NCBI GenBank assembly: GCA_003971905.1
Contig: RSEE01000019.1
Span: forward strand, 248,001 to 312,000
Direction of reading: 5' to 3'
DNA length: 64,000 bases
Source: Moniliella sp. 'wahieum'
Lineage: Eukaryota
Shown piece after piece: positions 6,071-60,238 of this stretch. The position numbers and the translations under genes were made by a program. Under the pieces are notes generated by a model that was not told the origin of the DNA, made no database searches, and saw only the letters and a program-made list of their open reading frames with translations. How positions within the stretch are numbered: position 1 is the stretch's first letter; every line of letters begins with the position of its first letter.

Positions 6071-6715
6071 GATGAAGGGGAAGCAGCTGAAGCAGAGGAA
6101 GGTGGTGGGAGAGGAGCACGTGGGGGGGCAGCGACAGAGACCTTAAGTAGCAGCCGGCGGCCGTGCGGGCCTCCGACCAGCTTCCCCGTTCTTAGAACAG
6201 GGGCAGTGTGTCTGCAATGACGCCATGATCGATGATGGACGATGCATGATGGCTCTCGTAAAGGCCGAACACTGCCCTCTTCCAGCCTGCGGCCTTCCCC
6301 AAAGGGTTTAAAGCGCAGCAGGCCGGTGGGCAGATGATTACCTAATCCTTCCAACTCGCTTCGTTGTGCTTCGACTTGATCGGATTGGATGTGGCAGTGG
6401 GATGGGCGCCGCCTCCGCTACGAACTAGCCGCAGCACCACGACCCCCCCATCAAATGGCCATCCGCTTGAAGCTTGAGCTTAGTCGTTAAATTTAACGAA
6501 TAGAGCGGCCTTGGGACTCAGGCTGAGCGCTCCTCTCCTCGCGAACATTGGCCAAGGTTGGTTGCCGGTGGGGCCTTAGGTCTTGGGCCTTAAGCTTCAA
6601 GGGGCATTGCAACGAGCACATGAATGGGAAGGAAAAGGATAGGCACTGTTGGGACCATGATCTGTGCGCACAGAACCACCCGTAGAATCACTGATTTTGC
6701 ATCAACGTTCAACCT

Positions 6716-6815
6716 ACACATCATGCATCATGTATCTCACCTGTCACTGGGACTGGTCCATCCGCATCATGCATCATGCATCATGCATCATGCATCATAT
6801 TGCACACCATGCATG
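6716..6815. repeat. (ATGCATC)n 7-bp tandem/palindromic tract
   Basis: ATGCAT at 6769, 6776, 6783, 6790 (period 7) plus nearby degenerate copies. Confidence 0.9.
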
Positions 6816-8145: not shown

Positions 8146-8999
8146 TGTCGTAGGAGTAGTAAAGTGTTGAATGCGAATGGGGGAAGGCGAGGGGATGGGA
8201 TGAGGGCCGCAACGTTCGGCGGCATCGGAACTTAAATACGTCAGGACAAGCAGAGGGGCCGGCGCATCTCTCACCTAGATAACAACGTGACACTGCGCTG
8301 GTGCACAGGTGAAATGTTGAACACTCGCCGGAAGATGCGCAACGCCTTCCGGTTCTCCGTCTTGAAGAAGCTCGAGGGGCCAATAGTAAAGGTCAGGTCA
8401 TTCGCGCCCAGCCGGTCTCTCCCGACATTCTTCTTCCGTTTTTCGGGTCAGCTTCCACAGGTTCAAGGTCCAAGTTGCTGGCCCACAGCTTCCTCCGACA
8501 GTGCCCCCCTCCACTCCGAGAGCTAGTGCGGCTCTCTGCGCCAGGGAACCGGACCAGGACCCGAGGCATCCGAAATCGTTGAATCATTTCACTGATACTA
8601 CAGACTCATCACAATTCAGGAAATCTGCACCTCTTCGTATCGTAATTTCCAAAGCATTGCATGAAAGGCCTAAGGAGGCGGAACCAAAAAGAATTGCCGC
8701 GCCGACTACACTGGCTTATCCGGTGTATGCTCTGCGACTTCGTATGTCAACTATACTCAATCCTCACGGTCAACCTATTCAAGAGAACTGTCCAGACATC
8801 AGCAGGTCAGGACTCTATGGCTCCCACTGTCATTAATCATTCACTCCCAATCCAAAACATGAGTAAGCGCAAGTAACGAACGTGACATGTGAGCGTCGGA
8901 GACGTCTGATCGAGCTGGGAACCATATCTCCCATGAGCGACTCTTCAATAAAAACACGCTTCCAGTGCTCAAACATCTTGTTGACTGTCTTTCTGTGGC

Positions 9000-11859: not shown

Positions 11860-12720
11860 GCAGCGATGTCACATGTCACGTGTCACTGTGACGGGGTTTG
11901 CACACGCGACGGTCACCATCACATGTCGCATGCCACATGCACGGGCGGCATGCCACATGTCACCCATCCATGCCTGCATGTCATGCATCATGCATCATGC
12001 GCGTCACATGTCGGCCAAGGGTCAAGATAGTCACTCATGATGCACATGATGCATGATGCGTGCATGATGCATGAATGGAACACAGGGGCTCGGTCGTAAC
12101 CACGTCTGGATCAAGTACTCTTCGGTCTCAGGGCCTGACCGGCCTGAGCGCCTGAGCGCCTGAGCCGCTAATAAGCCTCAGCAGCCTGAGGCTGAGCAGG
12201 CTGAGAGCGCTCAGGCTGAGCGCTCAGGCTGGAACCGCGAGCCCAAGCTTCGAGCGGCAAGGACCGTGCGGCGTGCACTGTGGCTTGCACTCTTTCTGCG
12301 CCGCTAGGGCGAGTGCAAGGACTTCCACGGCGTCGTTGGGCGTTGCACTTCAGTATGAGGCCACAGTTGTGGTATGGCCTGGGATTCTTGGGGCTAGTTA
12401 GTTTGAGAGGATGGCGAGCTCAGACGCTAAGTAGCAACGTGTTGTAACGCGAGTACGCTAGTAACGCTCAACTAGCAAAGCAGTAAAGCGAGCAGCGAGC
12501 AACAGCTATGCCTAATCGACAATCGGTAATCATTAATCAATCTAACCATCAATCAGCCCAAGCCTGACGAGATCGCCGCCAGTGGCCGTTTGCCACCCGA
12601 TTGCATCTGCGCATGCGTGGGTGGGTCAGATTGGTCTCAGAAGTGAGATGCGAGGGGAGGAGCTTAGCGCTTAGTGTTTAAAGTTAACGTTTTAATGTTA
12701 GACGGTAGCACTACAGCGCT
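11860..12720. repeat. Mosaic of 7-bp-period palindromic blocks (ACATGT, ATGCAT, AGCGCT, ATTAAT, AACGTT) upstream of the C2H2 gene
   Basis: tcacatgtca, tcatgcatcatgcatca, ctgagcgctcag, tcattaatca, ttagcgctta directly visible. Confidence 0.8.
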
Positions 12721-20064: not shown

Positions 20065-20660
20065 TTGATGAATGATTAATGATTGGCCTGGCTCGCCTGA
20101 TCGGCCGGTCGGTCCATGTGCTTGAAGCTTGAAGCTTGAGGGGCTCTCGGATCTCAGCGCCGCTCAGTACTCAGTAAGTACTCAGTCTGAGCGCTGAGTC
20201 TCAGCAGTACGTTCGGTCTGAGTAGCTAGTAATAGCCTAACCGGGCCGGAGCCACAGGTTGAGCTGTGGCGTGGCAAGAATAGGCCCAGGCCCAGAAAGA
20301 ACCCAGGCCAAGGCTGCATAAGGCCTAAGGGCCACAGCACACAGACCCTGGCACAGCCACACTGCTGCTGCTGCTCGTCTGCGTGAGCGTGAGCCATGTG
20401 TGCTGAGTCTGCCGAGTCCCCCGAGTCCGCCGCTTGCCTTTTCGTGCCCCTGCGCATGTCCCCATGAGACTATCGACTATCCCCCATCATGCATATCATG
20501 CATCATGAATCATTCCTCGCCTCCCGACTCTCCGATCTCACACAACGACCACCCTCTTCCCACCACTGCTGCTGTACGACGCACCACACACGAATGCTAC
20601 GCGTCGGGGCAGACGTGGGGTGCGTTAAACGTTAAAAGCTCGTTAAGCGCTAAGCGAGGC
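20065..20660. repeat. Palindromic 7-bp-lattice mosaic upstream of the ankyrin gene
   Basis: tgattaatga, ttgaagcttgaagcttga, tcagtactca, tgagcgctga, taaggcctaa, tcatgcatca, taaacgttaa, taagcgctaa. Confidence 0.8.
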
Positions 20661-21289
20661 CCATATACTGTGGGCTCCACTTGTCAGAGAAATACAGCAC
20701 CCGCTCAAAATCCGTCTCTGGCACCACATCCTCAACACACGTCACATGTCACAGCTACTGCCAATATTGCCACACTGCTATATTACTGAGTAACGCCTGC
20801 TACCGCGCCCCAGCCCTTCTCGCCGAATAAAAAAAAGCTTCGCCACAAGAACTGTGCATGAATGTTCCGCAGAGAGCGATCTCAAAGATCACTGCAAGAG
20901 AATTCATGCTCCACCGCTCCCACACACCACTCGTCCATCGCGTCTCCCTAAGTCTCTCTCCATATCCCCGACACACTCTCTTACAGTATATATACACCCA
21001 CACATCCCCCCCCTCATTATGTGTGTCCGTGCTCTCAATGGCGTACCGGATACCTCTCTTGTATTCGATTTTGTCACGCAGGCCTATAGCTAGTGATGCT
21101 GGCCATGGGGAATGGAAATGGTATTCCAGAGCTAATAAGGAGAGCTAGACCTTTGGGCCGAGGTAGGCTCCGGGCTCGGAGCCCGGAAGGTCCGGGACGC
21201 ACTGCCCCGATGCGCTGTGTGTATCGCGCCACGTGCCACTGAAGGCCGATGGGCTCTGAACCCAAGATTTTCAATGGAATAAGCGCTAA

Positions 21290-22990
21290 CAATTATTGCT
21301 AAGCTCGCTCCTCCTCAAGCCGCAGGAGGCCTCAACGTTCAACGTCCTCAACGTCCTCAACGTTCAAGTTGAACGTTGAACGTTTTTGAAGTTGATGTCG
21401 GCCTCGCTACTACCACAGGATGTGAGCACTGAACGTCGCATTGGACTAAGGAGCTTCTGCGACTGAATCGTCCAGAAGACTGGTGCGAGCTCGGAAGGAA
21501 TGAAAACTGACTCACGTGGCTCAGGGTACGCGCGGTCCTATAGGACGGATGTCAACAGTTAACGTTTAATGTTCCCGCGTTCACGACCTTTCACGACGTT
21601 CATGCCCAAAAGAGAAGTCTGGCAGCCCGACGCGTCTCCTCCTCAAAGCTTCGGCAGTCATATAGTCATAGCTTAGTTTTCCCTCTCTTCCACTCCCTCC
21701 TCCCTCTCCGCTACTCTCTACTACTCGCTCACCAGCAATCAATCTCTATCGTCTATTTGACCTACAGTTCTTGATGGCCGTTTCGCTTGGCATCGGGATC
21801 CGGTGACATCATCAAGTGTCAATTGAGTACGCTTCTATTCAGACTGAGTACTGAGCGTGTACTGTGTACTGTACGTTACTGTTCGTTACTATAGTTACTG
21901 AACGTTCGTTGAACACGTTGAACGTACTGAACGTACTGAACGTACTGAACGTTGAACTTTGAAGACGTTGAAGCTTCCTTGAAGAGCTTGAAGCTGGAAG
22001 TCAAGGCTAAGCCTTATCAGTTAGGCCTAAGGCTTAGTATTAAGCGCCTAAGCCCCCCTACTGATTCTAAGGCTGGATGAGGCCGAGGCCTGAGACTCAG
22101 GCTCTCAGGCCCTCAGCCTGAGGGTTGAGACGTTGAGGCTCAACTGAGCAGCGCTGTGAGCCTCAGTCCACAGCCTGAGGCCTGAGGTGGCGGATGGACG
22201 GCAGGGATACTGAACTTCTCGGTTGTATGAGGTGGCGGGACGCCCTGGGTAGGTGGACGACCCATGCGCACTGCCTACGTCCACAACATACGCCCCACAT
22301 GGGATAGACACTCCAAGCAATCGGCAGAGGAGACACCGTGCCGCCGGAATGGAATTGAGGGGCAGAGCACTGCAGAGCCGCATTCTGCATCGCATCACCC
22401 CGTCTGTCCTCACAAATCAATCATCGATCACCGCTCACAACATAGCCTGCGGGCAGATCTCAGATTTGCGTCTTAGATCTCAGACCTGCAGACAATAGAC
22501 AGGTGCTCGCATGGGGGCCGTGTGCGCGCTGCGCATGTGAGAAAGCGGGACGTTGAAAGCGGGTGGGAGAGTGCTGTGTCAGGCCTCAGGCGGTGCGCCG
22601 GCCTTGGCCTGCCTTGGCTGCGCAGCCAGTGCCTTGCTCGCTCCTCTGGCCGGGGCAGAGGCGGTGCAGGGCGCGCAGTGTTCGTGATGCATGCAGGCGC
22701 ACCGCAGCTGGCGCATGTCGGCACACCGTGTGAGCGCGCTGGCTGAGCGCGCTCAGATCTCTGATCCGCTCAGACCTGCTCACTCTGAGTGCAGCGCTGA
22801 GAGGCGCTGAGAGGCGCTGAGGTGCGCTGAGGCGCCGAGGTCTGAGGGCCTGAGGCATACTGAGCGTACCGAGTATTATGTATCTGTGCACGTACCTACC
22901 CAGTGTAAAAAAACTAAAGCTCAAGCCAGCAACCCGCCACTACCCGTCCTCGGGAATAACCCTGCCCTCCTCCTAAGCTCTAGGCCTCAG
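21290..22990. repeat. Long palindromic-lattice mosaic region (AACGTT, AGTACT, AAGCTT, AGGCCT, AGATCT, AGCGCT blocks)
   Basis: tcaacgttca, tgaacgttgaacgtt, tgagtactga, ttaggcctaa, tgaggcctga, ttagatctca; no ORF track entries over 21293-22104. Confidence 0.8.
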
Positions 22991-23128
22991 GCCCTCAGGC
23001 TTTACCGGTTACCGGTTGCCGGCCTCCGTTGGTTACTCATGCTGCTCTCGTCTACGCTCAGCGCTCACTTGCTTCTTCTCGCCACCGTCACTGTCCCCTC
23101 GTCGCTGCACTCCCCCTCCCCGCGTATA

Positions 23129-24628: not shown

Positions 24629-25559
24629 ATACCACGTGTCTCTTTCAGGCCCATGATCCCTCCTTCTTTATCTTGAGGGGTTCCCCCCACCCCCCTTGTC
24701 TACCCCTACTACTACCCACTCTCCGCGCCTCTGCTCGCTTCCCCCGCCCCCACTGTACTCCCTTTCGCAGAGAAGTAGGTTCTTGTCGCACATGATGATT
24801 CCTTGGGTATATATTTTTTTTCTCGCCTCCCCCGGTACTGTCGGGGTCTTTCTGCAATTCCAAGACCTATTTGGCCTTAGGCTTCATGCCTCATGCCTCA
24901 TGCCCCATGATGGCCTCGCATACTCGCCATGTTCCATGAGCTCTTGAAGACTTTGATTGATTATTTGACCTGTTGTGTCTGTAAGTGAGGGTCCCGGGAG
25001 GTCATGCACATAACGCATGCCATGCATCAACGATTTGTATGCGGTGATCGATTATCACCCTTTCAAACTCCATCCCATACCATGTTTGTGGGAGGCTCGG
25101 GATCGGCAGGAGTTGGCGGAATGGGGCGGAATACGGAAGTGGAGGTCGAGAAAAGTCAGGCTATAAATTTCTTCCTTCTTCGCTTGAAGCTGGATGCAAG
25201 CATTCGTTCTCCCCACCATGTAATACCCGGTTCACAACGGGAGCGCCCGTGACCAAGGGCCCTCCAACCGAGACATCAAACTTCAAGGCCCACTCAGTTC
25301 TCTCTCCACCTCCATGACCCAATTCGAATCGATCTTAAAGCTTCAACGGTCAACGTTCAAGGTGAGTTGCGCATCTCTTCCCCCCCCGCCCTTCCCTCAC
25401 ATGTGGGGGAAGGGGGCACCAATGATTTGAACGAACCAAATTCTTGAGACTTGGCGTCGATGAGAACCCAAATGTTCTTTTTATGTCTTTCGCTCCTTTA
25501 TGAGGCTCCTCCTTCGTGATGCATTAAGCATCCTTCCTACCAGACTGTTGCTGACTATT

Positions 25560-26300
25560 TTGCATCCAGATGCGATCCTCGGTGCAGGTATCCACTGCTA
25601 CCCATACCCCGGTCGGTCACAATGACTTGACTCTACCTCACGTGGAAACTTCTGTTGGTATCCGTCACGCCGTCCTACCGTTGCCACTTAGGCCAAACTC
25701 GTACTCAACCGCGATCGATATTCGATGCTCGAGGGATGATCTGCACGCACCACCTCATCCAGTGCCCACCTCCGTGCGGTTGTGTGACTGAGGTTCCTGG
25801 GTCTACTGATCACGCTATCCTCGTCTCCCGGCCGCAAGGGCGAGCTGGTCGCATCGTATCTTGTTTCTCCACATCTTCCGGCCGAAGAGGATTGAGAGAC
25901 TAATGACACTAGCTTGGTGGGATCTTGCACTCGAGTCTCTCCGTTAAGATTATCGATCACGATCTCCCAAACCCTCCTGACGCCGATAACTAGATGACTA
26001 CCCAAATTACCACGGTACACTACCACCACGGACAGCATCCCATGCCCAAGACGACAGTGGGCGCCCCTTCATTTCAACTCTGCCTCTGCCACGGGCCCTG
26101 TTCCCCCCTCTCCTGCCGGTCATCGTACAGAGGATGCGGGCTGGTTAAGACTGCCCTCTTTTATTGGTTGTACTTGGTCAGCATCCTGCTCCAGGCCTAT
26201 AGTCTCCTAATGCATGGTTTTAATTTACGGCCGGAACGACGGTAGAAACGCTTTGAATCCAGGCGTGTTGTTTTTGATGCTGTTTCCACGCCCATGCCAT
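25560..26300 (+). mobile_element. Possible decayed LINE (APE endonuclease) relic
   Basis: STAIDIRCS and GSTDHAIL resemble APE C-terminal motifs (SxID, SDH); heavily degenerate. Confidence 0.3.
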
Positions 26301-26377: not shown

Positions 26378-27260
26378 CATTGACAGAGCTTAAGGCTGGG
26401 ACAGGGGGAACGCTACGTCTAAACCGAACCGTTCATCTTGCGGGGGTTACTTGGAGGCGCCACCAAGATTAAGGGACCAGGGGGATCGCCAGGATATCAG
26501 GACCCTCCGGCTCACGCCATCCGGTCCCGTACCCTAGGAAGCGCGTGTGGACACGGAGGAACGTGGTTGACATACGAGCGAGGAACCATTTCCACTGAGA
26601 CTTAGTAGCCAACTCCTTCCAATGCGCAAACAACTTGCCCGCCGTCTTGGTGCCGTAGTATCCTCGCGTCGTCAAAACCAGGGGGAAAAACGGTTCTTGA
26701 GTGCGTCCCTGGTACTTGGCGTTCTTGTCGCATTCTGCTTGTTCAAGCAGCCGAAGCAGTTCCTTCTCCCGGCGTTCCAAAGGCGACGCAGTGCTCTCAT
26801 GCACCACCCGCCGGTACGCGCTCTGCGCCTCCTGCGATCCCGTGTCGCGCAGCGTGTGGTCTACCTCCATTCCGGTTCCTCCCAATGCTCCGGGCCCCAT
26901 CAGCGGTAATCGGTGCGCTGTGCCTTCCGTCCGCGCCTCGTCCCATCCTCTTCCTCCACCATAGGTTCGTTGTGGACGTGGGTGTCGGGGATGGAGCGGA
27001 GGAGCTGGAGAATGGGCTCCCGCACTGCCTCATGCAACGCACCAAACTTGGCCTGGGTGCGGGTGCAGGACATGATATGTTCCAGCGAGGACATGATGCC
27101 GCACTTGCACATGCTGCGCGTGGTGCGGCACAGCGTGCGGAGCTGGAGACCAACCTGGACCTGCTGGTCAGAAGCTTGAGGTACGGGACGGATGGAATGG
27201 CGGAGAGCCAGTTGTGGCTCAGCGGGTTGCTGTGCTCAACCACATGGCGACCATCGGCAG
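26378..27260 (-). mobile_element. 5'-truncated CRE/SLACS-clade non-LTR retrotransposon (CCHC knuckle + restriction-like endonuclease + 3' UTR)
   Basis: HNWLSAIPSVP; C-K-C-x7-H-x3-C knuckle; RTD..EVD..E.DKNAKY..FFPLVLTTRG RLE motifs; stop at 26469 then about 90-nt 3' UTR. Confidence 0.8.
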
Positions 27261-27601
27261 CGTCATGCATGTTACATGCTATGGGTGAGCGATGATCGAT
27301 GATTTACTTCCCGATCGTCGCGCGCCACATGTCACACGTCACGCGTCACAGCCAGCAAGCAGAAGCAGGTGGTGAGCAGGTGGTAGGCGCCGGATGGAGG
27401 ACTAGATTATTGCAGAGGCAAAATGGAGGAAGTAATTAATAAGGGCTCGTCCTCCTTGCCCTCTTTTTGTTTGGAGTAGGTCTCCCGCCAGCCTGGTTTA
27501 TCGGCATCGGCAGCAGGCATCTCCACCGCTCAGTAGCGAAATCCTACCCACTCCTCTCTCTAGTACCCTGCCCTCTGCTCTATCCTATACTGCATCCATA
27601 T

Positions 27602-33889: not shown

Positions 33890-34010
33890 TGGCCAGACAG
33901 CCTGACAGCCGCAGCCAGACAAGGCCAGACAAGGCCAGACAAGACACAGACAAGGCCAGACAGCCCGACAGTTCGACAGCCCGACAGCCCGACAGCCAGA
34001 CAGCCAGGTC
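33890..34010. repeat. Degenerate (C/G)AGACA(G/A)-type tandem repeat in the FlbC-like promoter
   Basis: ccagacaagg x3, cccgacag x3, ccagacag. Confidence 0.75.
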
Positions 34011-34276
34011 CGCGCAAAACCAGGGCGTAGCCCAAACGAGATCCTATCACCCGCCAGCTGGTTCCCATGCTCTATCTCCGGTGGCCATCGCTCATATCAC
34101 ACGGTACTCAGCACTCGGCAGCACCAGCACGCGTAGGATCCGCGGTACACGTCACACGCATCACGCTGGAAGCTACCTTCGCCCGCCACAAGCTTTCGGA
34201 TGCACCCGACGCCACGAAGCAACCGTCTCAAAATTCCTGACAGAGACCGGTATTGTTTGGGCTGTAGCAGCTGTAG

Positions 34277-34327
34277 CAGGACCCCGGACATCACCCATTG
34301 CTCATCGGTGGAGGCACGTCCCGTTCG
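34277..34327 (+). repeat. Left terminal inverted repeat
   Basis: caggaccccggacatcacccattgctcatcggtggaggcacgtcccgttcg. Confidence 0.95.
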
Positions 34328-34779
34328 TCAGGCCGATTTCACCCTTTTTGCACCCACCTCGAGGGTGCAAACGAACGGGATGTGCCGATTTTGGCCGATT
34401 TTGGCCCAAATTTGCCCCCTTGAACGGATGAGCCTATCAGTAGGGTTAGAATTACATAAGACACTTGCCCCGTGCCGCACTTGCTTACGCAAGCACAAGA
34501 AATTGTTAGGGTTCGGCTGGGGTGTCCCATCACGTCGCGTCGGGTGGTGCTGACTTAAGCGTGTTTTGGCCGCAACCATGTCTGCCTTTGCCTGCCTCTT
34601 CCCACGACGCGCCGAGCTCGAGAGCACTTCCAACGCGTCCCCCATGCTTCGCCCGTGCAGCAGCGCAAGTGCTTTGCCTGCCTCCAAAGGTGCAACCATC
34701 CTGGCCACACGTGTTGGCGACAAGGCGTCGGATACAGTCCACTCTTTGTCAGAGACGCGCACGGCCCTGATCACTTGGT

Positions 34780-37129
34780 GATTGGCGTTTTCCAACCGTC
34801 TGTCTTTCCCCCCATTACGATCAAGGTCGCTACTCTTGGAGGGAGTCGCTTGTCATGATGCAGGACGCGAAGCACGCTATAAAGACCGCCCGCGACCAGC
34901 TCACAAGCGGTGCTCGTTGCCTGGTTCTCGGGAGATACGCTGTCGGTTATGGGGACTTGGTCGCCCTCAATGACAAAGGGGCGCTTTACAATCGCGACAT
35001 ATTTCGATTGGACAAACAAGACGATCGAGCTGCAGCCCGCCTCTTCTCGGCCTCCACGCTAGCGGCGGTGGGCGACGCAGACGACCTGAACCGTGGCCTA
35101 TTCGTGTACCTCTATGTGATCGGCCTCGTTCAGTCGGCTATCCAGCACCGATCGCTTCCCCATTCCACGCGAGCGTACATGCTGCTCACTGCGTACTACT
35201 TTTCCATCTATGGGCGAACTTCATATCCTCCGACTCGCAGTACACGGCGGTCAATTTGGTCAGTCCGGGGATGCTCGACATCTTCAACCGCCTCATCACC
35301 GGGATGCTCGGCCTGATGTTGATTTACAGGGACGATTACAATAGCCGAATTCCCTTCACCCCTTGGACTCATTCGACCGAGACGTTAGAACACCACTTTG
35401 CTTCAGCGCGCCGACTCTTATCGGAGTTTGATGCTGTCGAGTACCAGCAGGTACGTCCCCCCCCCTGGCCCTCTGTCCCCCCTCCTTTCTAATGCTGTCG
35501 TCTTCCTGCAAACTGAAATCTGACTTATCCAGATCATGTCGAAAATTCATGGCCTCGCGCTCCACACGGTCGACATGGAGATTATGGTCTGAGTCATAGG
35601 ATGGACAAATATCCTGCTTCTGGCTACAACCACACCGTCTTTGACACTGCCGGGGTATGTCTCGATATTCTCAAGACATTTCCATCGGCGATCAATATGG
35701 AGCACATTTGTGCCGACGCCGCCAATGCGGCACTGTTCTGGCATCATGGGTGGGAATGGGACTGACTCCTCATTCGGATCCTCAACCTGCACCAGCTGCA
35801 CCTGTTCCCCTTCTCGAAGATGATGAGCCTTCCATCGTCCCCAACCACGACACTGTCTATGCCGCGATGCAACACTTTGTGGACCATTCTCAAGAGCCCT
35901 TCTCTCCCTGGGGAGAGGGCGATGCGGTACCCGCGACGTCTGACCCAGGTCCCGTATCCGCCCACGATGGCACGGTGGATGAGGGAGATGAGGTGGTCTC
36001 CAAAACCAGGCTGCGACTGATGGCGTTGGTGGAGGCTCGAGAGCAATGCCTGTATGTTTATCTCACCCATATAGTACGCGACGACGGCCGCGATTCTAAC
36101 AAACTCTGCAGCGAGAATTCTTCTGAGGTCAATGTTGACGCCGCTATCCAAGCCTCCCGCATGCGCATATCCAGCCTCCTGAGCCCGGCCTCAAGCATGT
36201 CCCCTGTTATGGCTGTATCCAACCCGCCCGATTGGACTCCAGTACGAACCTTGACCGAAAGCTCTTTCTCTCCTTCAGGACGAAGGTTGAAGACAGCTTA
36301 AGCTCCCAGGCGGGGAAGAAATGGAATACTGCGGGTGATTGCGGTTTGGGCAAGACGTGTTCTGCCCTAAATGGATTGCACAAAAATGCGGAGGCGGCGT
36401 TGTACAGCAGTGTGCTGAAGGAGCTTCAAGATGGGCCTGGCGCTGTCATTTATTCGGGGCCGGCCCGCAGGCTGCGATGGATGGGACAATCGAGACTCGA
36501 GCCCGTGACGGCTAACCAACAGGAGCGCCACGATCTTGTCGAGGAGGGTCGGGCGAAGAAGGCCAACGAGAAGCGGGTCAAGGCACTTTTCAACGTGGTA
36601 AAGAGGGTCAGCTTGTTGCCTTTGGACATTGCCAAGGGTGGTGTTTGCCGATCACCCCCCTCACCATAGGGGATCTGGTCGTCTTCCTGTCCCTCGACAA
36701 AACAGAGGTGACACCCACCGTTCAGATCGGCCATGGCAAGTCCATAACACTCACCATTTGTTCTTATTGCTGCTAACATTCGTATTCGAAGTGGTGAGCA
36801 TGTACACACAGGCGTCGAAAACTGTACCCCACAGCTGGGTGAACAATTGGTCGAACTTATCTACGCTCTCGTACATCTCGCTTCGCTGCCTGAAAGAAGG
36901 GACCCAGCCCACGTACACGTCCAACATGAAGTGGTCACTCAACACGAGGCGTTACTACCATGTGCCAGCTTTTCAGGTCCTGCGACGTTTACCAGGCGAG
37001 CATGTCTTCAAGCAGGCCAAGAGCGACGATTATACTGATTACACTGTGCAGCTTTCTCCCCAGGCAGCCGCGATGTTCGCCATGGTGGAGAAGGAGCACT
37101 TTCTCACTCCCTTGCTGGTGGGGAAGTAG
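34780..37129 (+). pseudogene. Transposase, apparently 5'-deleted, with introns (e.g. 35451-35533) and frameshifts
   Basis: MMQDAKHAIKTARDQL (DxxH..K..R), DKQDDRAAARLFS, PWTHSTETLEHHFASAR (LE..F...R), ASGYNHT; N-terminal part appears absent. Confidence 0.7.
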
Positions 37130-37593
37130 TCGCAGAGAATACCAATGGCTTTACATGCAGTGCCGCCTGCTATATAGAAGCACCTGTTGCGTATCAATCA
37201 GAGCAGGAGCTTGGAATTTGGAGATGAAGTCTGGAGGGTGGGCCCACCTCTCAGGTTGAGGGCGTAGGTAGGGTTCCTGCGTAGGTTAATTACCAAAGTT
37301 GGTACTAGCCAGTGGATGCTATTTGCTATCGTCACTGCATGTTGCGCGAGGTTGCGCGCTACTGCGTTTCGAATATTTCATGTTGTGCCGCTTTGTAGCC
37401 TGTGCCACCCCAGGCCGCCGGTTGAAACTTTGGCAAAAAAATTACCTAAGATCCGGATTTTGGGGATTCATCTACCATTTTGCACCCCTGAACGGGATGT
37501 GCCACCCTTTTTGCCCATTTTAGCCCCTAAATTTTGCACCCCCAACGGGATGTGCCGGCACTTTTTTGGCCCTGCGGGCCCAAATTTGCACCC

Positions 37594-37644
37594 CGAACGG
37601 GACGTGCCTCCACCGATGAGCAATGGGTGATGTCCGGGGTCCTG
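37594..37644 (-). repeat. Right terminal inverted repeat
   Basis: cgaacgggacgtgcctccaccgatgagcaatgggtgatgtccggggtcctg. Confidence 0.95.
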
Positions 37645-38355
37645 CTGTAGCCTGCTGTAGCAGGTCGTAGCAGGAGCACTATGTACATCCCGTGTACATC
37701 CCGTGTAGATGGTGCCCTGTGGTGCCATCGGGTCTATGACCTATGGGCCGGCCTGGGTCCGGCCGGCCTCCGGGGCCACATAATAGTTCACGGTGAATCG
37801 GAGGCCACCGGTTACCTTGACCAGTCTGCATGGCACCATCGTGGCTGCAGCGCCCGGAGTAGCAGCCCGTAAACAGCCCGGAACACGTTCACACGTTCAC
37901 ACGTTCACAAGAACGTTCCCTGTTCTATGCCCCTCGCCACAATCCCCTGGCACACATCGGTGTGCGTCTAAGGACAGCCCACCACATAACCGCTAAGTTG
38001 CGAAGTCTTTGTAGCTCCCCTCGTGCAGTGCAACACACCATCAACTGCCTGCTCTCTTGTCTTCTACCGCTCAGGCGGAAGCTAATGGGCGAACAGTTCG
38101 ACCCGGCCCTTTACAAGTGCACCGAAGACGCGCTGGAACGTGAAGCTCTTGTACTTGAAGATGTGCCTGGAGCTTGGAGCTTTGGGCTTAGCGGCACGTG
38201 ACAGAGGGAATCATTTCATTTCTTTTGTTAGTGCCAGTTGCAGTGCTGCCAGTGTCCTACCCAACCTTTCAAAAGTTTCGTTCCCGCTTGCGCTTCCGTG
38301 CCCAAACACCGCGTCGCTTGCCGTCCGCGTCGCCTTAGATTGCGAGCTCACCATC

Positions 38356-41300
38356 ATGGCCCCGGGTGCACGCAGCTTTCCGTCCTGGGCCCGATGGCGC
38401 CATCCAGGTCCGCACTGTCGGCGCTCGCCGCGGTGGGGGCAGGGTGGAGGTGCGCCAAGCCGCGGGCGTGGGCGTGGGCGTGGTGGCGGCGCGTCTCCCG
38501 CAACCGCCGCCGGCACCCCCACTGTCTGGCCTGATGTGCCTGCGCCTGTGATTGACCCTGACCAGGAGGCTCCAACGCTGCCCCAGCTACACCAGTGGTG
38601 GCTCCACCATCTTCAAGCTCGAGCTGACGAGTCCTACAATACCTTTGGCCACTCGTCTAGCTACGGTAGGGCCAAGTCCACCCTGCAGAACCACGTCAAG
38701 GTGTGGAAGAAACACGCCGACTATGATCGCATCCTCGCCACCCCTGACGCGTGTGGCGCCAAGATGAAGAATGTCCCAGATGGTTATGGCCCACTTCATG
38801 CTGAACAGCTGATCCGCCTTAGTAATTTTGGCGAAAAGACTGTGGGCGAAATGGAAGCGGTTACCAGCGAGGGTATATCTCCAACGACTGGGACCCGCCC
38901 CCTTCCTCGGGCTTGGCAAAGTCTGGCACACGTGGATCTTATTCAGGGCGAAAGCGAGTTATTGAACAGCCTCTAGACCCGAACTCCTCCCCACCCCAGC
39001 AGCCTCCCCGCCAGGGTAGCTCCCACACACGCTGCCGCGGGCAAAAAGCGCAAACCCCAACATACCGAAATCGAGGACGCGGCCCAGGACCTAGGCAAGG
39101 AATCGACTCGCAAGAAGCGCAAGTCGACAAAAGCTTACATCCCAACGCTTGGTTCCGGGGGGTACGGGATTATGCTTGCTCTTTGGTCTCACACGGCTGA
39201 CGCTGAGCGCTTCGGCACGGCCGCGTTGGTGGGCGAGGGTGCTGGTGCTGCCCTCCTCAACGATGATGATGAGACGGACGAAGAAATGGGAGAAGGAGAT
39301 GAGGTGATGCTTACCAAGAATGAGATCATTGCTGATGGTCAACGTTGGTGCACCGCTGACTATGTGTTGGGAAGCACGGGTGCCGCAGGCGATGCTGAGG
39401 TCGCTGGCCGCATGGGCCGGAGGAACGGTCGAGTTGCTTTTGCCAATGGGGGGCAGTTCACTTTCACTCCTTGGAATAACATTAACACCCTCAAAGAGAA
39501 CGAGTATGTGTACGAGATCCGGTCTCGACCTGCCAAATATTGTCTCACCGCCGAGGGCATGGTTGTCGCCCGTGCTTTGGCCCAGCATGCCAAACTGCGG
39601 AGGATTAACGAGCGCAAGCAGATGGAAGCGGAAGAGGCAGCCCAGCGAGCAGCCCAAGAGAAGGAGGCTGCGAAGGAGGCAGCCAAGGAGGCCGCTAAGC
39701 GAGAACGTCTTGCCAACCGGAAAGGTCCAACTAGGCGAAAGGAAAAGGGTATGAGGCCAATTGGGGACATCAACGATTCTTCCTCAGACGACGGTCTGGC
39801 GTTAGAACCCCCACCTACGCTGAGCATGGCCCAGCACCGACCACGATCATTCTTGCCTGAAGATGACTCACCCCCCACCCCCTCGTCCTGAGCCCAGCTT
39901 CCGCCCGACTCGGGCACCTTCTCGATCCCACTTGTCCTCTTCCCCCCCTGTAACCCCCGCTGCTCCCCATGAAGCAGTAAGGCCATTGGTTGCACCACTC
40001 ACAGGTAGGGAGGAAGCTGCAACTACCGCGTTTCCCTACACCTATCTTTCTCGCACCGGTGCCGAAACGTTGGAGAGGGCGGGGGCGCTTACGCGTCTGC
40101 GTGATTCCGACTACACCCCCATCTTCTTGATTCGCTTCCCTGTAAATCTTAAGGCTCAACTCGTTTCCTCTGGTATCATCGAGGCGCCACACATTGACCC
40201 TTCCTCTCCTGACTTTGTACGGGCTTGGATCACTCGCGACTCATCCCTCCCTATCGCCTCTGGATTAGAAGGGTGCCCTCGTCGCGCCTCCGCACCTTCT
40301 GCCTCTGCCACCATCGACCTCCTCTCCGACTCGGATGAGGAGCCTTCCCCTCTTCCCCAATTGGAACGACCAGGAAAGCACCGTCTACCGCGCCCGCCTG
40401 CCAGGCAGGAGCGAGTCAGATCTCAGACAGCAACGGCAATGCCACCGCACCTGGGCGCGCATCAAAAGCGACTCTTGTTCTTCCGCCCCAGCTCAGGCGT
40501 GCGCCACCAACGAATGTGACTATTGAGCTAGACGATTCGGATGAATCAGACGAGTCGCATATTCTGCAAGGTGCATCCGCTGTGCCCGCGCGGCCGGCAC
40601 CCCACACTTTTGGATCAACCTTTCGTCTTGTCTCTCCTCCTTCTGGGAGCAGCAGGGGTCCCACAACCGAGCCCGAAGATTTCCCTCCTGCCGAATCTGA
40701 CAGGCGCGACTCGCAATCCCAAGCACTTACCATTGCGGCGGGGAGGCTTCTCAGTCGCAGTTGCAGTCGCAATCCCAGTCCCAGCGCCCTAAGGCCTAAG
40801 CGTGTTGCGCGGCCCATACCTGGGACGGAATGACGATTCCCAAGGTACCACCTTACCGATGGAAACACAAGCCACAACACTTCCCCCACGTCAGAAGATG
40901 GTGGAAGCACGAAGCGTCGCCCACAGACCTATCGTGCCCCTCGAAAAGCGTGCACGGTTATCCAACATTGTCCCCCCCCCCGCAATCGGAATGAGCTGGC
41001 ACAACGCGCTGGTACCTCGAGGGGAAGCAGCGTTGGCTGACCAGGGTGGCTCTAGTCGCACGCGGACTGACTGTGCTCCTGTCGAAGGGGGTGGTCCACA
41101 AGCCTACCGCCCACCGAGTTTGAGCCAATCGTATGGCCCAAAGGCTCATTTGATGTGTTCTTGGTCATGGACCATCGCGAGGTACTGGTCAAAGGCGCCA
41201 GTGCGGACCAGGCCCGTGCTGCCGGTGGGCCAACTGACTTTGAAACAGCGTTGCGGGAACGGCATGGTGTGGCCACGCTCAGCCGTGCCCTGAGCCTGGG

Positions 41301-42188
41301 GGATGCGCTGTGGGTGGCTCGGGACAAGAAAGACCCTTCGAGGGAGGTGGTTCTGGACTTTATTTGTGAGCGGAAACGCATGTCCGACCTTCATATCTCC
41401 TCCGCGATGGCCGGTACGAAGAGCAGAAGTTCCGCCTCGCCCAAACGGGGCTCTCACATGTTCTGTATGTGGTGGAGGGATCAGTGGCCCAACTGTACGG
41501 TGCCAATGCCCCTGCCGCTGCAAGCGGAAGAAACGTAGCCTCGAGTCAGTCCAGTCGTCAGGCTCTGATGACTGCTGAATCCGAGCTCCAGCTGCTGGAT
41601 GGGTACTTTGTTGACACACGCCCGATCCCGCACGGTCAATCGAGTACTATGCGCGGATGCACAATGTCATTACAGACTTGGTGGCGGTACGTGCGCTTGT
41701 TGTTATTGTTTGTGGACAGAGCTGACGAGAAGCGGGAGCAGAATACGGATCTGCATGAGCTTCCATCGGAAGTGATCAGCCGATCCTCCTACCTTTCTTT
41801 GCAAACCTATCTCCGCCAACGGGAGCCGGACCGGGTGTACCTCACATCGTACAAGGATCATGTGCGGCTGAATGGCAAGTCGGCCAATAAGTGTGTACGG
41901 GATGTGTGGACGCAGATGCTGTTGTGTCCGTGGCATCTCTGCCGAGAAGGCGGCCGAGATGCTGGATCACTATCCGACCCCGCACGCGTTTTGGCATCGC
42001 CTCCGCCAAGAGCAAGAGCAAGAGCAAGGCGCAGACGAGCGGACGGGGCGGGAGGCGGGGAAGGCGCGACGTGCACCATCTGAACGAGGCCGCACCTTCC
42101 TCCAGCGCACCATCCAGCGCCCGAGCGGCGCAGGCGGCTGGGGGAGGGGCTGTCGGCCAGGATGTGGGACCTGTTCATGGAGGAGTGA
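38356..42188 (+). CDS. MUS81: Crossover-junction endonuclease Mus81; intron about 41687-41740, frameshifts
   Basis: Winged-helix YIPTLGSGGYGIMLAL..FTPWNNINTLKE..YCLTAEG; ERCC4 domain LVMDHRE..LGDALWVAR..VLDFICERKRMSDL..RDGRYEEQKFRL; HhH GISAEKA..YPTP. Confidence 0.92.
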
Positions 42189-47445: not shown

Positions 47446-47529
47446 GCCTCGCTATTTCAATCGGTAGAATTTGAGACTCTTATTAAGAGGTCCATCTCAC
47501 GGTTGTGGGTTCGAGTCCCACGTGGGGCG
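47446..47529 (+). tRNA. tRNA-Lys(CTT) with short intron
   Basis: Acceptor GCCTCGC/GTGGGGC, anticodon arm TGAGA-CT-CTT-A-[intron]-A-TCTCA, T-arm GTGGG-TTCGAGT-CCCAC, T-rich terminator; D-stem atypical. Confidence 0.85.
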
Positions 47530-48006
47530 TTTCTTTTGGTATCGAGCTCAATCTTGGGGCGCCATTTCTAATGCGGTGTAACATGTGATGTGAATATGGA
47601 ATGCTCAGTGGCCCGGTGGCCTGATTCCAGACTACTGGCGGGAAGCGCTCAAGCGATAATCGATAATCGATAACCTGGAGAGCTAAAGGATGTTCCTGTC
47701 GATCTGTTGCTACATGCTGTTCCTCGCCCGGATGCCCTGCCGCTTGCAGGACTCGACTCTGCCGGCCGGCTGGGATGCGAAAGTGGGCAGATTGACATGC
47801 ACAGTGATTGTTCCGCCCCATGCGGAAGAGGTTAATGAATTATTTCTAAGCTGTCCCCCATGGTGCATGGGGCAGTGCACGGCAAATGCTGGTGCCGGGC
47901 GGCAGTAGGGTTTGGTCTCCACCAGTGCGTTAGGGCCTGTAGGGCGTGGGCTCATCGACTGCTACCTCCCACACCACCCTCTTCGCTTCCTTCGTCCGTG
48001 TCCGCC

Positions 48007-51875: not shown

Positions 51876-51974
51876 GGGGCTCAGCGGGAATTGAACCCAC
51901 GACCACCTCTATTCGAACTGAAACCAGCCCGGGCACGTCCCGAAAGAGGCATGATACCACTACACCATGAGCCC
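51876..51974 (-). tRNA. tRNA-Pro(CGG) with intron
   Basis: GGGCTCA/TGAGCCC acceptor, CCTCT-TT-CGG-G-[intron]-T-AGAGG, GTGGG-TTCAATT-CCCGC, oligo-T terminator. Confidence 0.9.
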
Positions 51975-52683: not shown

Positions 52684-52771
52684 CGAATCCTGCCGGGCTC
52701 GAACCGACGACCATTACCATGACTCTCAGGCGAAGCCGGAAAGTAACACTCTACCACTGAGCTAAGAATCC
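52684..52771 (-). tRNA. tRNA-Arg(CCG) with intron
   Basis: GGATTCT/AGGATTC acceptor, GCTC-AGTGGTA-GAGT D-arm, TTACT-TT-CCG-G-[intron]-T-GGTAA, GTCGG-TTCGAGC-CCGGC, oligo-T terminator. Confidence 0.85.
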
Positions 52772-54968: not shown

Positions 54969-55600
54969 TGTGGATTCCGTTTCTGTGTTTCTTAAACTTC
55001 CGTTTGCTTTTCTTTTTCTCTTCTGTTCAACGTTGACCCTTTTGTGCCTCTATCCGATCTCGACCTTTCTGAGCGGTTCTTGTTCCATGTCCTTGCCGCG
55101 TAACAATAATATAAAAAAGTATGTTTCCTTTGACACCTTTGTCATGCTTGGGGATCAACGACGGTCTGGAGGCGCGAGGGGGGGGCAAAGTTGGGCAGTA
55201 GAGGTGGTTCGCGAACAGAGGACGGGACCCAGCTGTGACATGTGACACGGCAGGGGAGGAAAGGAGCAAACGATACTGGCCCTGCGTGCGTGTGAAAGTT
55301 GAAACTGATGTTGAGCGTTCACGTTGGTGCGTCATGCATCCCACTCAGACATCATGCATCACGGGCATTGGCTCGTGCCGGGTGGAGGCGGCTCGGCTGC
55401 CGAGGCTGCTGCCGTTGGTTGTGAGTGGCGACCACTACTTGGCTTCATTAAGGCACTTGGCTTCGAGGTTGTTGCCCAGCGCCCCTTTCTCTCCGCTCAC
55501 CTGCCATCGCACCACCACCACCACTACTACCAACTTCGGCCAACCACCGCCTCCTCCCGTTGCGCTCTCTTTCATCGCTCACTGCAGCCCAGCACCCCGA

Positions 55601-58372: not shown

Positions 58373-58755
58373 GGTGGTTGACACTGCCACTGACATGGCC
58401 GCCTTCCACTCCAAGGCGGGACCCAATCTCGTTCATTTCCTTTTGACTGGTTACTCTGCACCTGATTACATCCCTTGGTCTGGGGCTGAAGCTTGTCCAA
58501 GTCCGAAGACCGCATCGATCGACATCTGACCCTGATACCACCCACTCCTGTTCGCTTGTGTGAAGAAGCTCCCCACAAATGCAATGTTCAGCTGGTAATG
58601 ATGTTCATCGATCAGCTGTTGCAGCCTGCCCGCTCTGACTGCGAGTTAAACGTTAAACTGAGCAGCCTGGGCCGGGCTGTTATCTCGGCAGCTTAAATCT
58701 ATTCCGTGCCCATACCATGGGATAGGAATCTCGGAATCGACGGCGGAGACGGCAA

Positions 58756-58992
58756 TGTTGACTGTGATCCTCTGGCTCCAGTCGGTTAGACCAGGTTCGC
58801 CTCGGTTCCATCGGCTTCCACGCTGACGTCCCTGCGTGTCACTGTCCCTGTGCCCTGCACTCTCTCCTGTGTGACTCACTGTCCCTGTGCCTAGTCCAGC
58901 CTCCTATATAGATGCCTCTGTACCCAGACCCAACTCTGGCTCCAATCCATCACCTTCTCCTCATTCTGCCCGTCCGGCTCCCTAGGCCAACA
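58756..58992 (+). repeat. 5' LTR (237 bp)
   Basis: Identical to the 3' LTR except four small indels. Confidence 0.95.
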
Positions 58993-59113
58993 GAGCTAAA
59001 TCTGATCCCCCCGGAAGGGGAGCGCTCTTCAAGCAAGCCCACCCCCAAGCCTACAAGCCCAAGCTAAGCCGCCAAGCCCACAAGACACACCCGTCCTCCC
59101 GCCCAACAACACC

Positions 59114-59189
59114 ACCGCCACAATCGGCACCTTACGCCACAATCGGCATACTACCGCACAATCGGCATACTACCGCCACAATCGGCACA
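59114..59189 (+). repeat. Four-copy 19-20-bp tandem repeat inside the LTR element
   Basis: Core cacaatcggca at 59119, 59138, 59157, 59177. Confidence 0.9.
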
Positions 59190-59906
59190 CTCGTCCCCCC
59201 CAGATGGGGCAATGATTTTTAGGGACAACACACGACGGAACAAAACGTGTCGGGTATCGTCAACGAGACGAAATTCCTCCAACGACAAAACGGCGCAGGC
59301 GAATCGCAGAAAGCGGGGGTGGCTGCTCATCAAGTGCCCACCCACGGCTACACGCCCCGGATTGCCAATTCATCCGGGGCACCTGGGGAAAGGATGGGGG
59401 GGGTGGTCACCCAACTTCTTCCACTCCTCTTTTTCAACAACAAAGAGAACCCAAACAGATCAAGACGGTTGACGCATAGCGCCCGTTCATTTCCCATGCC
59501 CAATGGACCCCACTGGCACCAGGCATGCGGAACCAAACAACTACCAAACGCATCCAATTTTGATGCCAAACGACCTTGGACCGCATTTACTCCAAGTTTC
59601 CAATTTTCTTTCACTACACCTATAACTGGTGCTTTTTACTTTTGCCCACCAAATCGCTTCGGGGCGCAACCCCTACTACTTTTACTTCTAAGACTTCTAC
59701 AAGCATCTGGCGGTCGCACAATACACCAACCACAAGCGCTCGGCTCGTTCAGGTGTCATCCTGGACAGCGGGGGTGTAGGCCAGTCGTGTGGCCATGCAC
59801 AACTCCAGGCCATTCGTCCCGGTTGCCACTCAAGTCCTCCCCTCTACATCCACTGGCAGGAGCTCATCCCACAACCGATGTCTCCGGGTTCCCTGGCCAG
59901 CGGGGG

Positions 59907-60145
59907 TGTTGACTGTGATCCTCTGGCTCCCAGTCGGTAGACCAGGTTCGCCTCGGTTCCATCGGCTTCCACGCTGACGTCCTGCGTGTCACTGTCCCTG
60001 TGCCCTGCACTCTCTCCTGTGTGACTCACTGTCCCTGTGCCTAGTCCAGCCTCCTATATAGATGCCTCTGTACCCAGACCCAACTCTGGCTCCAATCCAT
60101 CACCTTCTCCTCATCCTTCTGCCCGTCCGGCTCCCTAGGCCAACA
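59907..60145 (+). repeat. 3' LTR (239 bp)
   Basis: See 5' LTR. Confidence 0.95.
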
Positions 60146-60238
60146 GGCAACAACCTGGCCGAAGCATTTGAATCGGCAAGCGGAAATGGGTTGGCGGGTT
60201 ACCGTGCTGATGTTTCCTTTGGGGTTTTTGGTCCAGAT

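Follow-up and report, generated by a model that had tools for sequence, protein, structure and literature searches.

Flank hairpins and the footprints of excision

In hAT, Transib and MULE transposons, as in RAG recombination, the flanks are left as hairpins, which are opened by host enzymes before end joining and leave footprints (PMC5499845, cited in part). The footprints of Ac/Ds in Candida consist of short deletions and short palindromes of P nucleotides, in two predominant types (PMC5873905, in part); excision of Muta1 in yeast is mostly precise (PMC5499845, in part). Palindromic footprints derived from the flank are diagnostic of hairpins. Mariner footprints derive from the element, and PIF/Harbinger transposons, mPing-type elements included, duplicate TTA/TAA and excise precisely (PMC4561436, in part). 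Elements with 7-bp target-site duplications (TSDs) are known in basidiomycetes: hAT7, present in Puccinia and Melampsora, clusters with Ac/Tam3 and fungal hATs, and Kyakuja occurs in Laccaria (PMC12730594, 2025, in part). Members of the P superfamily make 7- or 8-bp duplications at palindromic targets, that of Galileo being 7 bp long, with the consensus GTANTAC, within a longer palindromic target motif (PMC4168063). The subject of the present work is a lattice of short repeats of the form TNA-[4-bp palindrome]-TNA, dispersed over a 64-kb stretch of DNA from Moniliella sp. 'wahieum' (contig RSEE01000019.1, positions 248,001 to 312,000). This whole stretch, hereafter the window, to which all counts refer, is eukaryotic, with a G+C content of about 57%. 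The lattice is probably an accumulation of DNA-repair scars, left by a flank-hairpin cut-and-paste DNA transposon that would have repeatedly inserted at TNA-centred non-coding targets and then excised.

Transib and RAG duplicate 5 bp and MULEs about 9 bp, sizes other than the 7 bp that fits the lattice. Their products, V(D)J coding joints included, otherwise resemble it in the features of a flank hairpin, opened off the tip by a host nuclease, with palindromic additions and end joining (PMC5499845, in part). The hAT footprints described for Ac/Ds in plants, budding yeast and Candida albicans are like the lattice in that the copies of the target duplication are largely retained, with P nucleotides copied from the flank at the joint, and in that few products predominate, in a fungus as well (PMC5873905, PMC4561436, both in part). 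By contrast, classical hAT elements duplicate 8 bp and centre the footprint on the base beside the element, whereas in the lattice the presumed break points stand 7 bp apart, the centre is TNA and the dominant product is a fixed gain of 7 bp. The lattice is also unlike classical hAT footprints in its density (about 65 scars in about 22 kb of DNA outside open reading frames (ORFs), or about 3 per kb), in its building of arrays and in the lack of an element in the window. The inferred agent would be most like hAT7 and Kyakuja, both basidiomycete DNA transposons with 7-bp duplications, hAT7 coming from a superfamily with flank-hairpin chemistry (PMC12730594, in part). Their hosts are Pucciniomycotina and Agaricomycotina, whereas the lineage of the window is nearest to Ustilaginomycotina, and the passages of that source which deal with them mention no footprints. 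The 7-bp target of Galileo, palindromic and centred on N, resembles the one proposed for the lattice, but it is GTANTAC and not nnTNAnn (PMC4168063).

A lattice specific to TNA

An earlier note, made from the sequence of this DNA, had proposed that intergenic tracts resembling unrelated simple repeats follow a single rule, TNA-[4-bp palindrome]-TNA. All 19 examples that it located were found again to within one base, and its expectation of an enrichment over random DNA holds well: the motif occurs 71 times, far above Markov simulations, which give 7.5 (order 1, z 25), 6.2 (order 3, z 26) and 15.4 (order 5, z 15). When XNY-[4-bp palindrome]-XNY was counted window-wide for all 16 X/Y pairs, the remaining 15 stayed near chance (z at most 3.3). 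A palindromic core is present in 71 of 202 TNA-N4-TNA sites, where 12.6 (1/16) are expected. The spacer of 4 stands out, palindromic cores making up 20 of 93 sites at spacer 2 and 4 of 137 at spacer 6. As the note had also maintained, many different cores share one geometry, at least 10 by its count; 13 of the 16 possible palindromic cores are found, the commonest, TGCA, accounting for 13 of the 71 sites, and no core sequence is common to all. Exact period-7 runs of at least 14 nt obey the rule in 22 of 36 cases, against about 3% of possible units.

The sites group into 46 clusters, of which 34 lie outside any ORF of at least 135 aa, even though such ORFs cover 65% of the window. Among the 12 clusters inside ORFs, several are in ORFs that match no family, or at switches of the open frame within MUS81. 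Sites 40416 and 40790 stand exactly at such switches, between the WH domain (38977-39888) and the ERCC4 domain (41071-42080), and are probably in introns, 7-bp insertions that shift the frame being the alternative. The tract 21290-22190, which contains eight sites (21332, 21357, 21370, 21559, 21845, 21946, 22021 and 22176), falls within a divergent intergenic stretch of 2.6 kb (20171-22810) without Pfam-supported genes, bordered by a minus-strand ankyrin gene ending at about 20170 and a plus-strand ORF starting at 22811. A permissive Rfam scan of 20100-22850 yielded a single sub-threshold match, which is irrelevant.

Anatomy of the unit

The earlier note had taken TNA for the second of two alternating inversion centres. 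This does not hold: N is identical in both copies of TNA at 58 of the 71 sites and complementary at only 5, and TNA is therefore directly repeated, not inverted. The unit event is a gain of 7 bp, which can be written ab-TNA-cd + d'c' + TNA-cd or, in its mirror image, ab-TNA + b'a' + ab-TNA-cd: a 5-nt direct repeat (TNAcd) with a 2-nt inverted copy of the flank cd between the copies. The period-7 match extends at least 2 nt past TNA on one side at 59 of the 71 sites. A scan in which TNA was not imposed leads to the same unit, with 51 instances of a 5-mer repeat with two mirrored nucleotides (4.3 expected) and 47 in the opposite orientation (4.7 expected). These events carry T at repeat position 0 in 69 of 98 cases and A at position 2 in 70 of 98, and most of the others are different registers of the same arrays. 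The left- and right-handed forms being equally frequent, the inversion centres must be placed symmetrically around N, each 2 nt away from TNA and at a distance of 7 bp from one another. The inverted bases come from the side distal to TNA, the sole array of opposite form being that at 24884-24904.

TNAcd is repeated at period 7 at 45 loci, and at 39 of these the spacer is d'c'. The mirrored loci comprise 14 that have the 5+2 structure only, 10 that are one base longer and 15 that are full palindromic repeats or arrays; the six non-mirrored loci comprise one plain duplication and five that belong to neither class. The 14 loci of 5+2 structure cannot come from plain 7-bp tandem duplication, and the idea of slippage as the source was dropped for that reason. 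Likewise, 13 cores that each match their own flank are not footprints derived from an element. In short, what the lattice obeys is no code of sequence; each palindrome is a mirror copy of its own flank.

In places the lattice reverses. At about 21360-21372 the TCAACGT array flips to its reverse complement, TGAACGT (TGA-AC-gt twice), through a 13-bp palindrome, GTTCAA-G-TTGAAC, which looks like a longer fold-back. A comparable pair of opposite arrays is found at 11981-12000 and 12045-12074.

Specificity was further assessed in 676 kb of environmental (metagenome) DNA, made up of 80 loci that surround ATP sulfurylase genes and were used for this purpose only, since the best is 81% identical and none is thus a close relative. 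This DNA contains 89 instances of TNA-palindrome-TNA, or 0.13 per kb, a density that falls among those of the other geometries, as against 1.11 per kb in the window. The mirrored 5+2 structure is met at two independent places of the 676 kb, one a short array at a contig end and the other a conserved coding site common to three homologous loci, compared with 39 loci in the 64 kb of the window. Among the other genomes searched, no look-alike stretches were found. The lattice is genuine and departs strongly from randomness, and its rule is peculiar to this genome and, within it, to TNA and to non-coding DNA.

Spectrum of the putative scars and probable length of the duplication

The spectrum of products was compared with a model in which a 7-bp duplication, ab-TNA-cd, receives m mirrored bases while t bases are trimmed from its second copy. 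The class (m=2, t=2) has 38 loci where 0.17 are expected, the other 15 centre triplets giving 0 to 7. Classes (1,1), with 26 loci (0.23 expected), and (0,0), with 16 (0.07 expected), mostly overlap (2,2) at palindromic targets. The smaller classes are (2,1), 6 loci (0.07 expected), (1,0), 5 loci (0.07 expected), and (2,0), 4 loci (0.03 expected). TNA is clearly above all 15 other centre triplets for (2,2), (2,1) and (1,0); the +7 product is dominant, and the +6, +8 and +9 classes are specific to TNA.

The rarer scars include 7-nt direct repeats centred on TNA, with one or two mirrored bases (+8, +9). In such 7-mer repeats the spacer is of the P type at 5 of 5 loci at spacer 1 and at 4 of 5 at spacer 2. 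Three clean two-copy +9 scars are seen: GT-TGA-AC + ac (21908), CT-TGA-AG + ag (21978) and CA-TGA-TG + ca (12036). The arrays at 21346 and 21919-21952 agree with a +9 reading, and two +11 loci (12052 and 20169) are each one mismatch away from the two-sided prediction, with mirrored bases from both sides. From these sequences we infer a target duplication of 7 bp, nnTNAnn. Two other lengths were considered and rejected. With a Transib-like duplication of 5 bp, P additions should stem equally often from either end, TNA or distal, and those of the TNA end are seen in just the one array at 24884-24904. An 8-bp hAT model calls for even periods with P=2, for which the signal is weak (7 and 6 instances of K=6+2, with about 1 expected).

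Targets, coverage and decay

Targets were reconstructed from 29 two-copy loci. Their N follows what is available, with C or G in 22 of 29 as compared with 66% of available TNA, and T at -4 and A at +4, the positions that border the 7 bp, are under-represented, with 4 of 58 symmetrised counts. Isolated palindromic TNA 7-mers occur at chance level (180 against 164 +/- 12); hence palindromic targets are preferred, rather than accumulated beforehand. In the four intergenic stretches examined, perfect scars make up 5-8% of the sequence, and in non-ORF DNA as a whole 1.4%. They grade into a decay series: 39 loci are perfect (0.35 expected), a single violation is seen at 32 (5.1 expected) and two violations at 53 (44.9 expected).

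A P-like transposon in the window

The only DNA transposon found in the window is a P-like element at 34278-37643. Its terminal inverted repeats (TIRs), 58 nt long, are 97% identical, with 14 of 14 terminal bases matching, and it is bordered by an 8-bp near-palindromic duplication, GCTGTAGC, without TNA. Subterminal GAACGGGATGTGCC repeats are present and the internal ORFs are broken. The core of its protein is related to uncharacterised Agaricomycete proteins; Pfam matches stay below threshold, and a profile of the family finds nothing among PDB sequences. A predicted structure of a homologue (P0005; mean local confidence, pLDDT, 56; predicted template-modelling score, pTM, 0.52) has the Drosophila P transposase as its sole significant match (6PE2/6P5A, E 1e-8/1e-7, template-modelling score by target 0.54-0.57), and an atlas lead concurs with the assignment to P elements. 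As judged from this predicted fold together with the TIRs and the duplication, 34278-37643 is a P-superfamily DNA transposon. A BLAST search with the element ends detected no other P-like copies.

On each flank of the element (34261-37661) the 8-bp target recurs once more, separated by A on the left and by CT on the right, and these spacers equal the terminal bases of the element itself, not the mirrored flank. The extra copies look like older visits to one site. They are scars of another type than those of the lattice, but are direct evidence that duplicated targets are used again in this genome. Two-copy 8-mer repeats with a 2-nt spacer are present at seven loci, with CT or AG as spacer in four where about 0.9 are expected. 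CT and AG are the dinucleotides that end the P-like element, and the loci concerned are 13228, 21580, 22601 and 37341 (and 37644-37661); numbers are small, and these repeats may be a second, element-derived class of scar. Two arrays foreign to the lattice accompany the element, (GCCAGACA) x13.6 about 250 bp before its left end (33892-34007) and (TGTACATCCCG) x2.4 about 40 bp after its right end (37682-37707).

Excision scars as the probable origin

If the lattice consists of excision scars, insertion would duplicate the 7 bp nnTNAnn, and on excision the transposase would leave both flanks as covalently closed hairpins. A host nuclease would then open each hairpin about 2 nt off its tip, producing an overhang of 4 nt that is complementary to itself (cd d'c' or b'a' ab). 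Of the two overhangs, one would mostly be retained on end joining and the other trimmed to a duplex ending exactly at TNA, which would yield +7; retention of more overhang would yield +8, +9 or +11. Because each scar would recreate its target, with a palindromic flank of the kind used about five times more often per site, repeat visits, perhaps with later slippage, would build the 7-bp arrays, and in multi-copy arrays the two contributions are not separable. Occasional long fold-backs would flip the orientation of an array. What is observed has the marks of footprints of this type. Direct repeats anchored on TNA, of 5 nt (dominant), 6 nt and 7 nt, span the joint; at 39 of 45 loci the bases added at the joint repeat the flank in inverse orientation, and not the ends of an element; and the products form a spectrum of trims and P lengths. 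If scars of 7 bp were tolerated only outside coding sequence, this would explain the intergenic location as well as a promoter code does. The agent is most likely, by analogy with described elements, a member of the hAT superfamily with 7-bp duplications, such as those of the hAT7 group; an element of Kyakuja type, also with 7-bp duplications, is the alternative.

The earlier note had suggested an iterative fold-back or template-switch process centred on TNA. Its fold-back part stands, the core being an inverted copy of the 2 nt beside TNA, and so does iteration, in that arrays can grow by the same event repeated, each event recreating its target. Template switching gives way to hairpin-capped break ends and end joining, which the anatomy favours, and the centring is lost, TNA being part of the duplicated target. 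The note had stated, besides, that no description of this grammar was known, and we found none in the literature searched, from which subscription journals were outside coverage. The underlying type of scar is well known; what appears to be undescribed is the density, the 7-bp geometry centred on TNA, the stereotyped +7 and the building of arrays.

A number of observations weigh against excision scars. No relic of a hAT, MULE or Kyakuja transposase was recognized by Pfam among the ORFs scanned, which comprised the 129 of at least 135 aa and, in poorly annotated regions, 88 of the 277 of 75-134 aa; in particular, no hAT transposase (BED finger, RNase-H-like core, hAT dimerisation domain) is present in this set. 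A scan of the window for TSDs of 5, 7 and 8 bp combined with TIRs gave no element with a TNA-centred duplication, the P-like element alone being found. Paralogues within the window (58756-58993 and 59907-60146; 26378 and 27602) differ by just 1-3-bp and unrelated insertions or deletions, and no insertion, excision or empty-site polymorphism is seen. The 7-bp length of the duplication follows mainly from symmetry and from a few clean loci, unambiguous two-copy +9 scars numbering only three, and the arrays permit two registers. A mirrored spacer is also found, in some register, at 7 of 15 period-9 loci that lack TNA, several of which are related to the lattice or belong to the flank of the P-like element. 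End-joining footprints usually vary more than the +7 product does. Of 37 two-copy events, 16 sit on flanks that were already palindromic, above the prediction of a simple model. Finally, the likeness to hAT7 would be one of TSD length (PMC12730594, in part).

Part of this evidence would suit an agent that carries no transposon. A nuclease of the host or a domesticated one, for example a hAT-like transposase making hairpin-capped, 7-bp-staggered breaks at TNA in open promoter chromatin and adding a scar at each cycle, is expected to produce an identical scar anatomy; it would fit the unusually stereotyped +7, the failure to find an element in the window and the placement of the scars, which are mainly intergenic and include regions upstream of genes. 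Yet where no element has been inserted, nothing accounts for the retention of both 7-bp copies at a staggered break or for hairpins on both flanks. Insertion and subsequent excision naturally give the duplication, and a single 64-kb window cannot show that an element is absent, suitable elements being known in basidiomycetes (PMC12730594, in part). We regard this nuclease as unlikely. In a more elaborate version, which seems to us quite unlikely, mobile elements no longer play a part: promoters are cut again and again at TNA by a hairpin-forming transposase that has been domesticated, or by another nuclease of the host, and the self-propagating palindromic heptamer arrays that result have been co-opted as cruciform-forming or nucleosome-excluding promoter elements. 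Selection has also been invoked by itself: the earlier note had offered a structure-based promoter code, and one may think of arrays of transcription-factor half-sites, or of elements that form cruciforms or exclude nucleosomes. The tracts are indeed intergenic or upstream and the arrays strongly self-complementary, but the 13 cores have no shared sequence, the core is set by the 2 nt adjacent to TNA, many events are single and many decaying (32 loci with one violation). Nothing was found for a structure-based code, the core being dictated by the sequence beside TNA and isolated palindromic TNA 7-mers not being enriched; a promoter grammar as the cause is thus highly improbable, though the scars may have a secondary use.

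Ordinary microsatellites, with quasi-palindromic 7-mers forming single-strand hairpins and expanding by replication slippage as CNG triplets do, would account for the multi-copy arrays, which (with five copies at 6764-6798, for instance) are indistinguishable from slippage products, and they would agree with the over-representation of palindromic flanks among events. It remains that 14 loci have the 5+2 structure only, that plain duplication is seen at 1 of 45, and that slippage explains neither the copying of the flank, the restriction to TNA nor the +9 and +11 classes, isolated palindromic TNA 7-mers again not being enriched; we find this origin very unlikely. A transposon with a 3-bp TNA duplication (PIF/Harbinger- or CACTA-like), leaving 2 nt of each inverted terminal repeat in the manner of mariner, has the attraction that TNA-type duplications are typical of PIF/Harbinger (PMC4561436, in part) and that two retained terminal dinucleotides would make a 4-bp palindrome. 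Such a family should however have a constant core, and there are 13 forms that match the flank at 39 of 45 loci; moreover, excision of the mPing type is precise (PMC4561436, in part) and 7-nt direct repeats are impossible from a 3-bp duplication, so that this origin is scarcely credible. The P superfamily has a representative in the window, whose own target has been re-used, and palindromic targets of 7 or 8 bp are known in that superfamily (PMC4168063). Its duplication, however, is 8 bp long and lacks TNA, and the spacers A and CT match its own termini and not the flank. The Drosophila P element cuts inside its own ends and is not known to make flank hairpins. That the P family of the window made the lattice therefore deserves very little credence. 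As for an artefact of assembly or sequencing, the graded series of decay speaks against it, as do the rule of flank mirroring and the placement in non-coding DNA, and we give it next to no weight.

Other features of the window

The gene content of the window is that of an ordinary basidiomycete. Pfam identifies genes for a PX-domain protein, thioredoxin, uricase, an ankyrin protein, a C2H2 protein, MUS81 and DAD1, and further for COX5A, diphthine-ammonia ligase, a RING/TRAF protein, ATP sulfurylase and a Surp protein. The closest named relatives of the diphthine-ammonia ligase belong to Ustilaginomycotina (Moesziomyces, Testicularia, Sporisorium, Tilletia and Malassezia), at just 44-49% identity, which indicates that the lineage is poorly sampled; two further assemblies reach 69-74%. 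There are three tRNA genes (47446-47529, 51876-51974 and 52684-52771), which, being 84-99 nt long, probably contain introns; ARAGORN gave odd anticodons for two of them and missed the third. An inverted pair of segments of about 480 bp (931-1414 and 26614-27067), 25 kb apart and 73% identical, represents either diverged paralogous genes or an old repeat. Direct repeats of 240 bp (58756-58993 and 59907-60146, 97.5% identity) start with TGTTG, end with CAACA and have GGCAA on both sides; with an internal ORF without Pfam match, 58751-60150 looks like a small long terminal repeat (LTR) element of about 1.4 kb. The tracts of the lattice are collected in the table.

Table. Tracts of the lattice in the window, with units described as scars; lower-case letters mark mirrored bases.
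Position	Strand	Feature	Basis
6226..6798		Scar cluster upstream of thioredoxin gene (minus strand); (TCATGCA)x5 at 6764-6798	
8830..8892		TCA-TTAA-TCA and TGA-CATG-TGA, upstream of uricase gene (minus strand)	
11866..12673		Scar cluster upstream of plus-strand gene from about 12794; TCATGCA / TGATGCA arrays in opposite orientations; +9 scar 12036, near-perfect +11 scar 12052, +8 array 12143	
20071..20751		Scars in first part of the 20171-22810 divergent intergenic stretch; near-perfect +11 scar 20169	
21330..21384	no strand	Array in which +9 and +7 scar units are mixed (CC-TCA-AC-gt / TCA-AC-gt)	sequence
21559..21568		Single TTA-ACGT-TTA site	
21843..21965		Dense scar tract: TGA-GTAC-TGA (21845); +9 scar GT-TGA-AC + ac + GTTGAAC (21908); period-9 array (ACTGAAC+gt)n 21919-21952; TGA-ACGT-TGA (21946)	
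21978..21993		CT-TGA-AG + ag + CTTGAAG, a clean +9 scar in two copies; direct repeat of 7 nt, with its first 2 nt mirrored in the spacer	
22021..22030		TTA-GGCC-TAA amid TAA/TTA-GCC/GGC repeats	
22096..22187		TCA/TGA-GGCC scar tract, with TGA-GGCC-TGA at 22176	
22421..23067		TCA-TCGA-TCA, TTA-GATC-TCA, TCA-GGCC-TCA, TTA-CCGG-TTA, TCA-GCGC-TCA; start of next gene region	
25045..25959		Single sites, scattered	
27293..27442		TGA-TCGA-TGA, TCA-CGCG-TCA, TAA-TTAA-TAA	
46037..48771		Sites around tRNA gene and COX5A; (TAATCGA)x2.9 at 47654-47673	
55027..55361		Three sites, 5' side of RING/TRAF zinc-finger gene	
58605..58658		TCA-TCGA-TCA and TAA-ACGT-TAA	
63157..63184		(GTTCAAC)n array upstream of Surp-domain gene	

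Consequences for the genome

A word of caution is in order, in that rule-based grammars of intergenic repeats can be records of mutation and not regulatory codes. Scars of this kind would constitute a natural experiment, reporting, without work at the bench, the target nnTNAnn, the length of the duplication and the offset at which hairpins are opened (about 2 nt); they should also supply abundant and directional markers for the comparison of strains. Were a domesticated nuclease at work after all, the fungus would be continually rewriting its own regulatory DNA by programmed cut-and-scar. If instead, as we think probable, the scars were left by the excision of a transposon, then an element that is locally invisible would be a main source of new sequence, of palindromes and of 7-bp microsatellites between and upstream of the genes of this organism.

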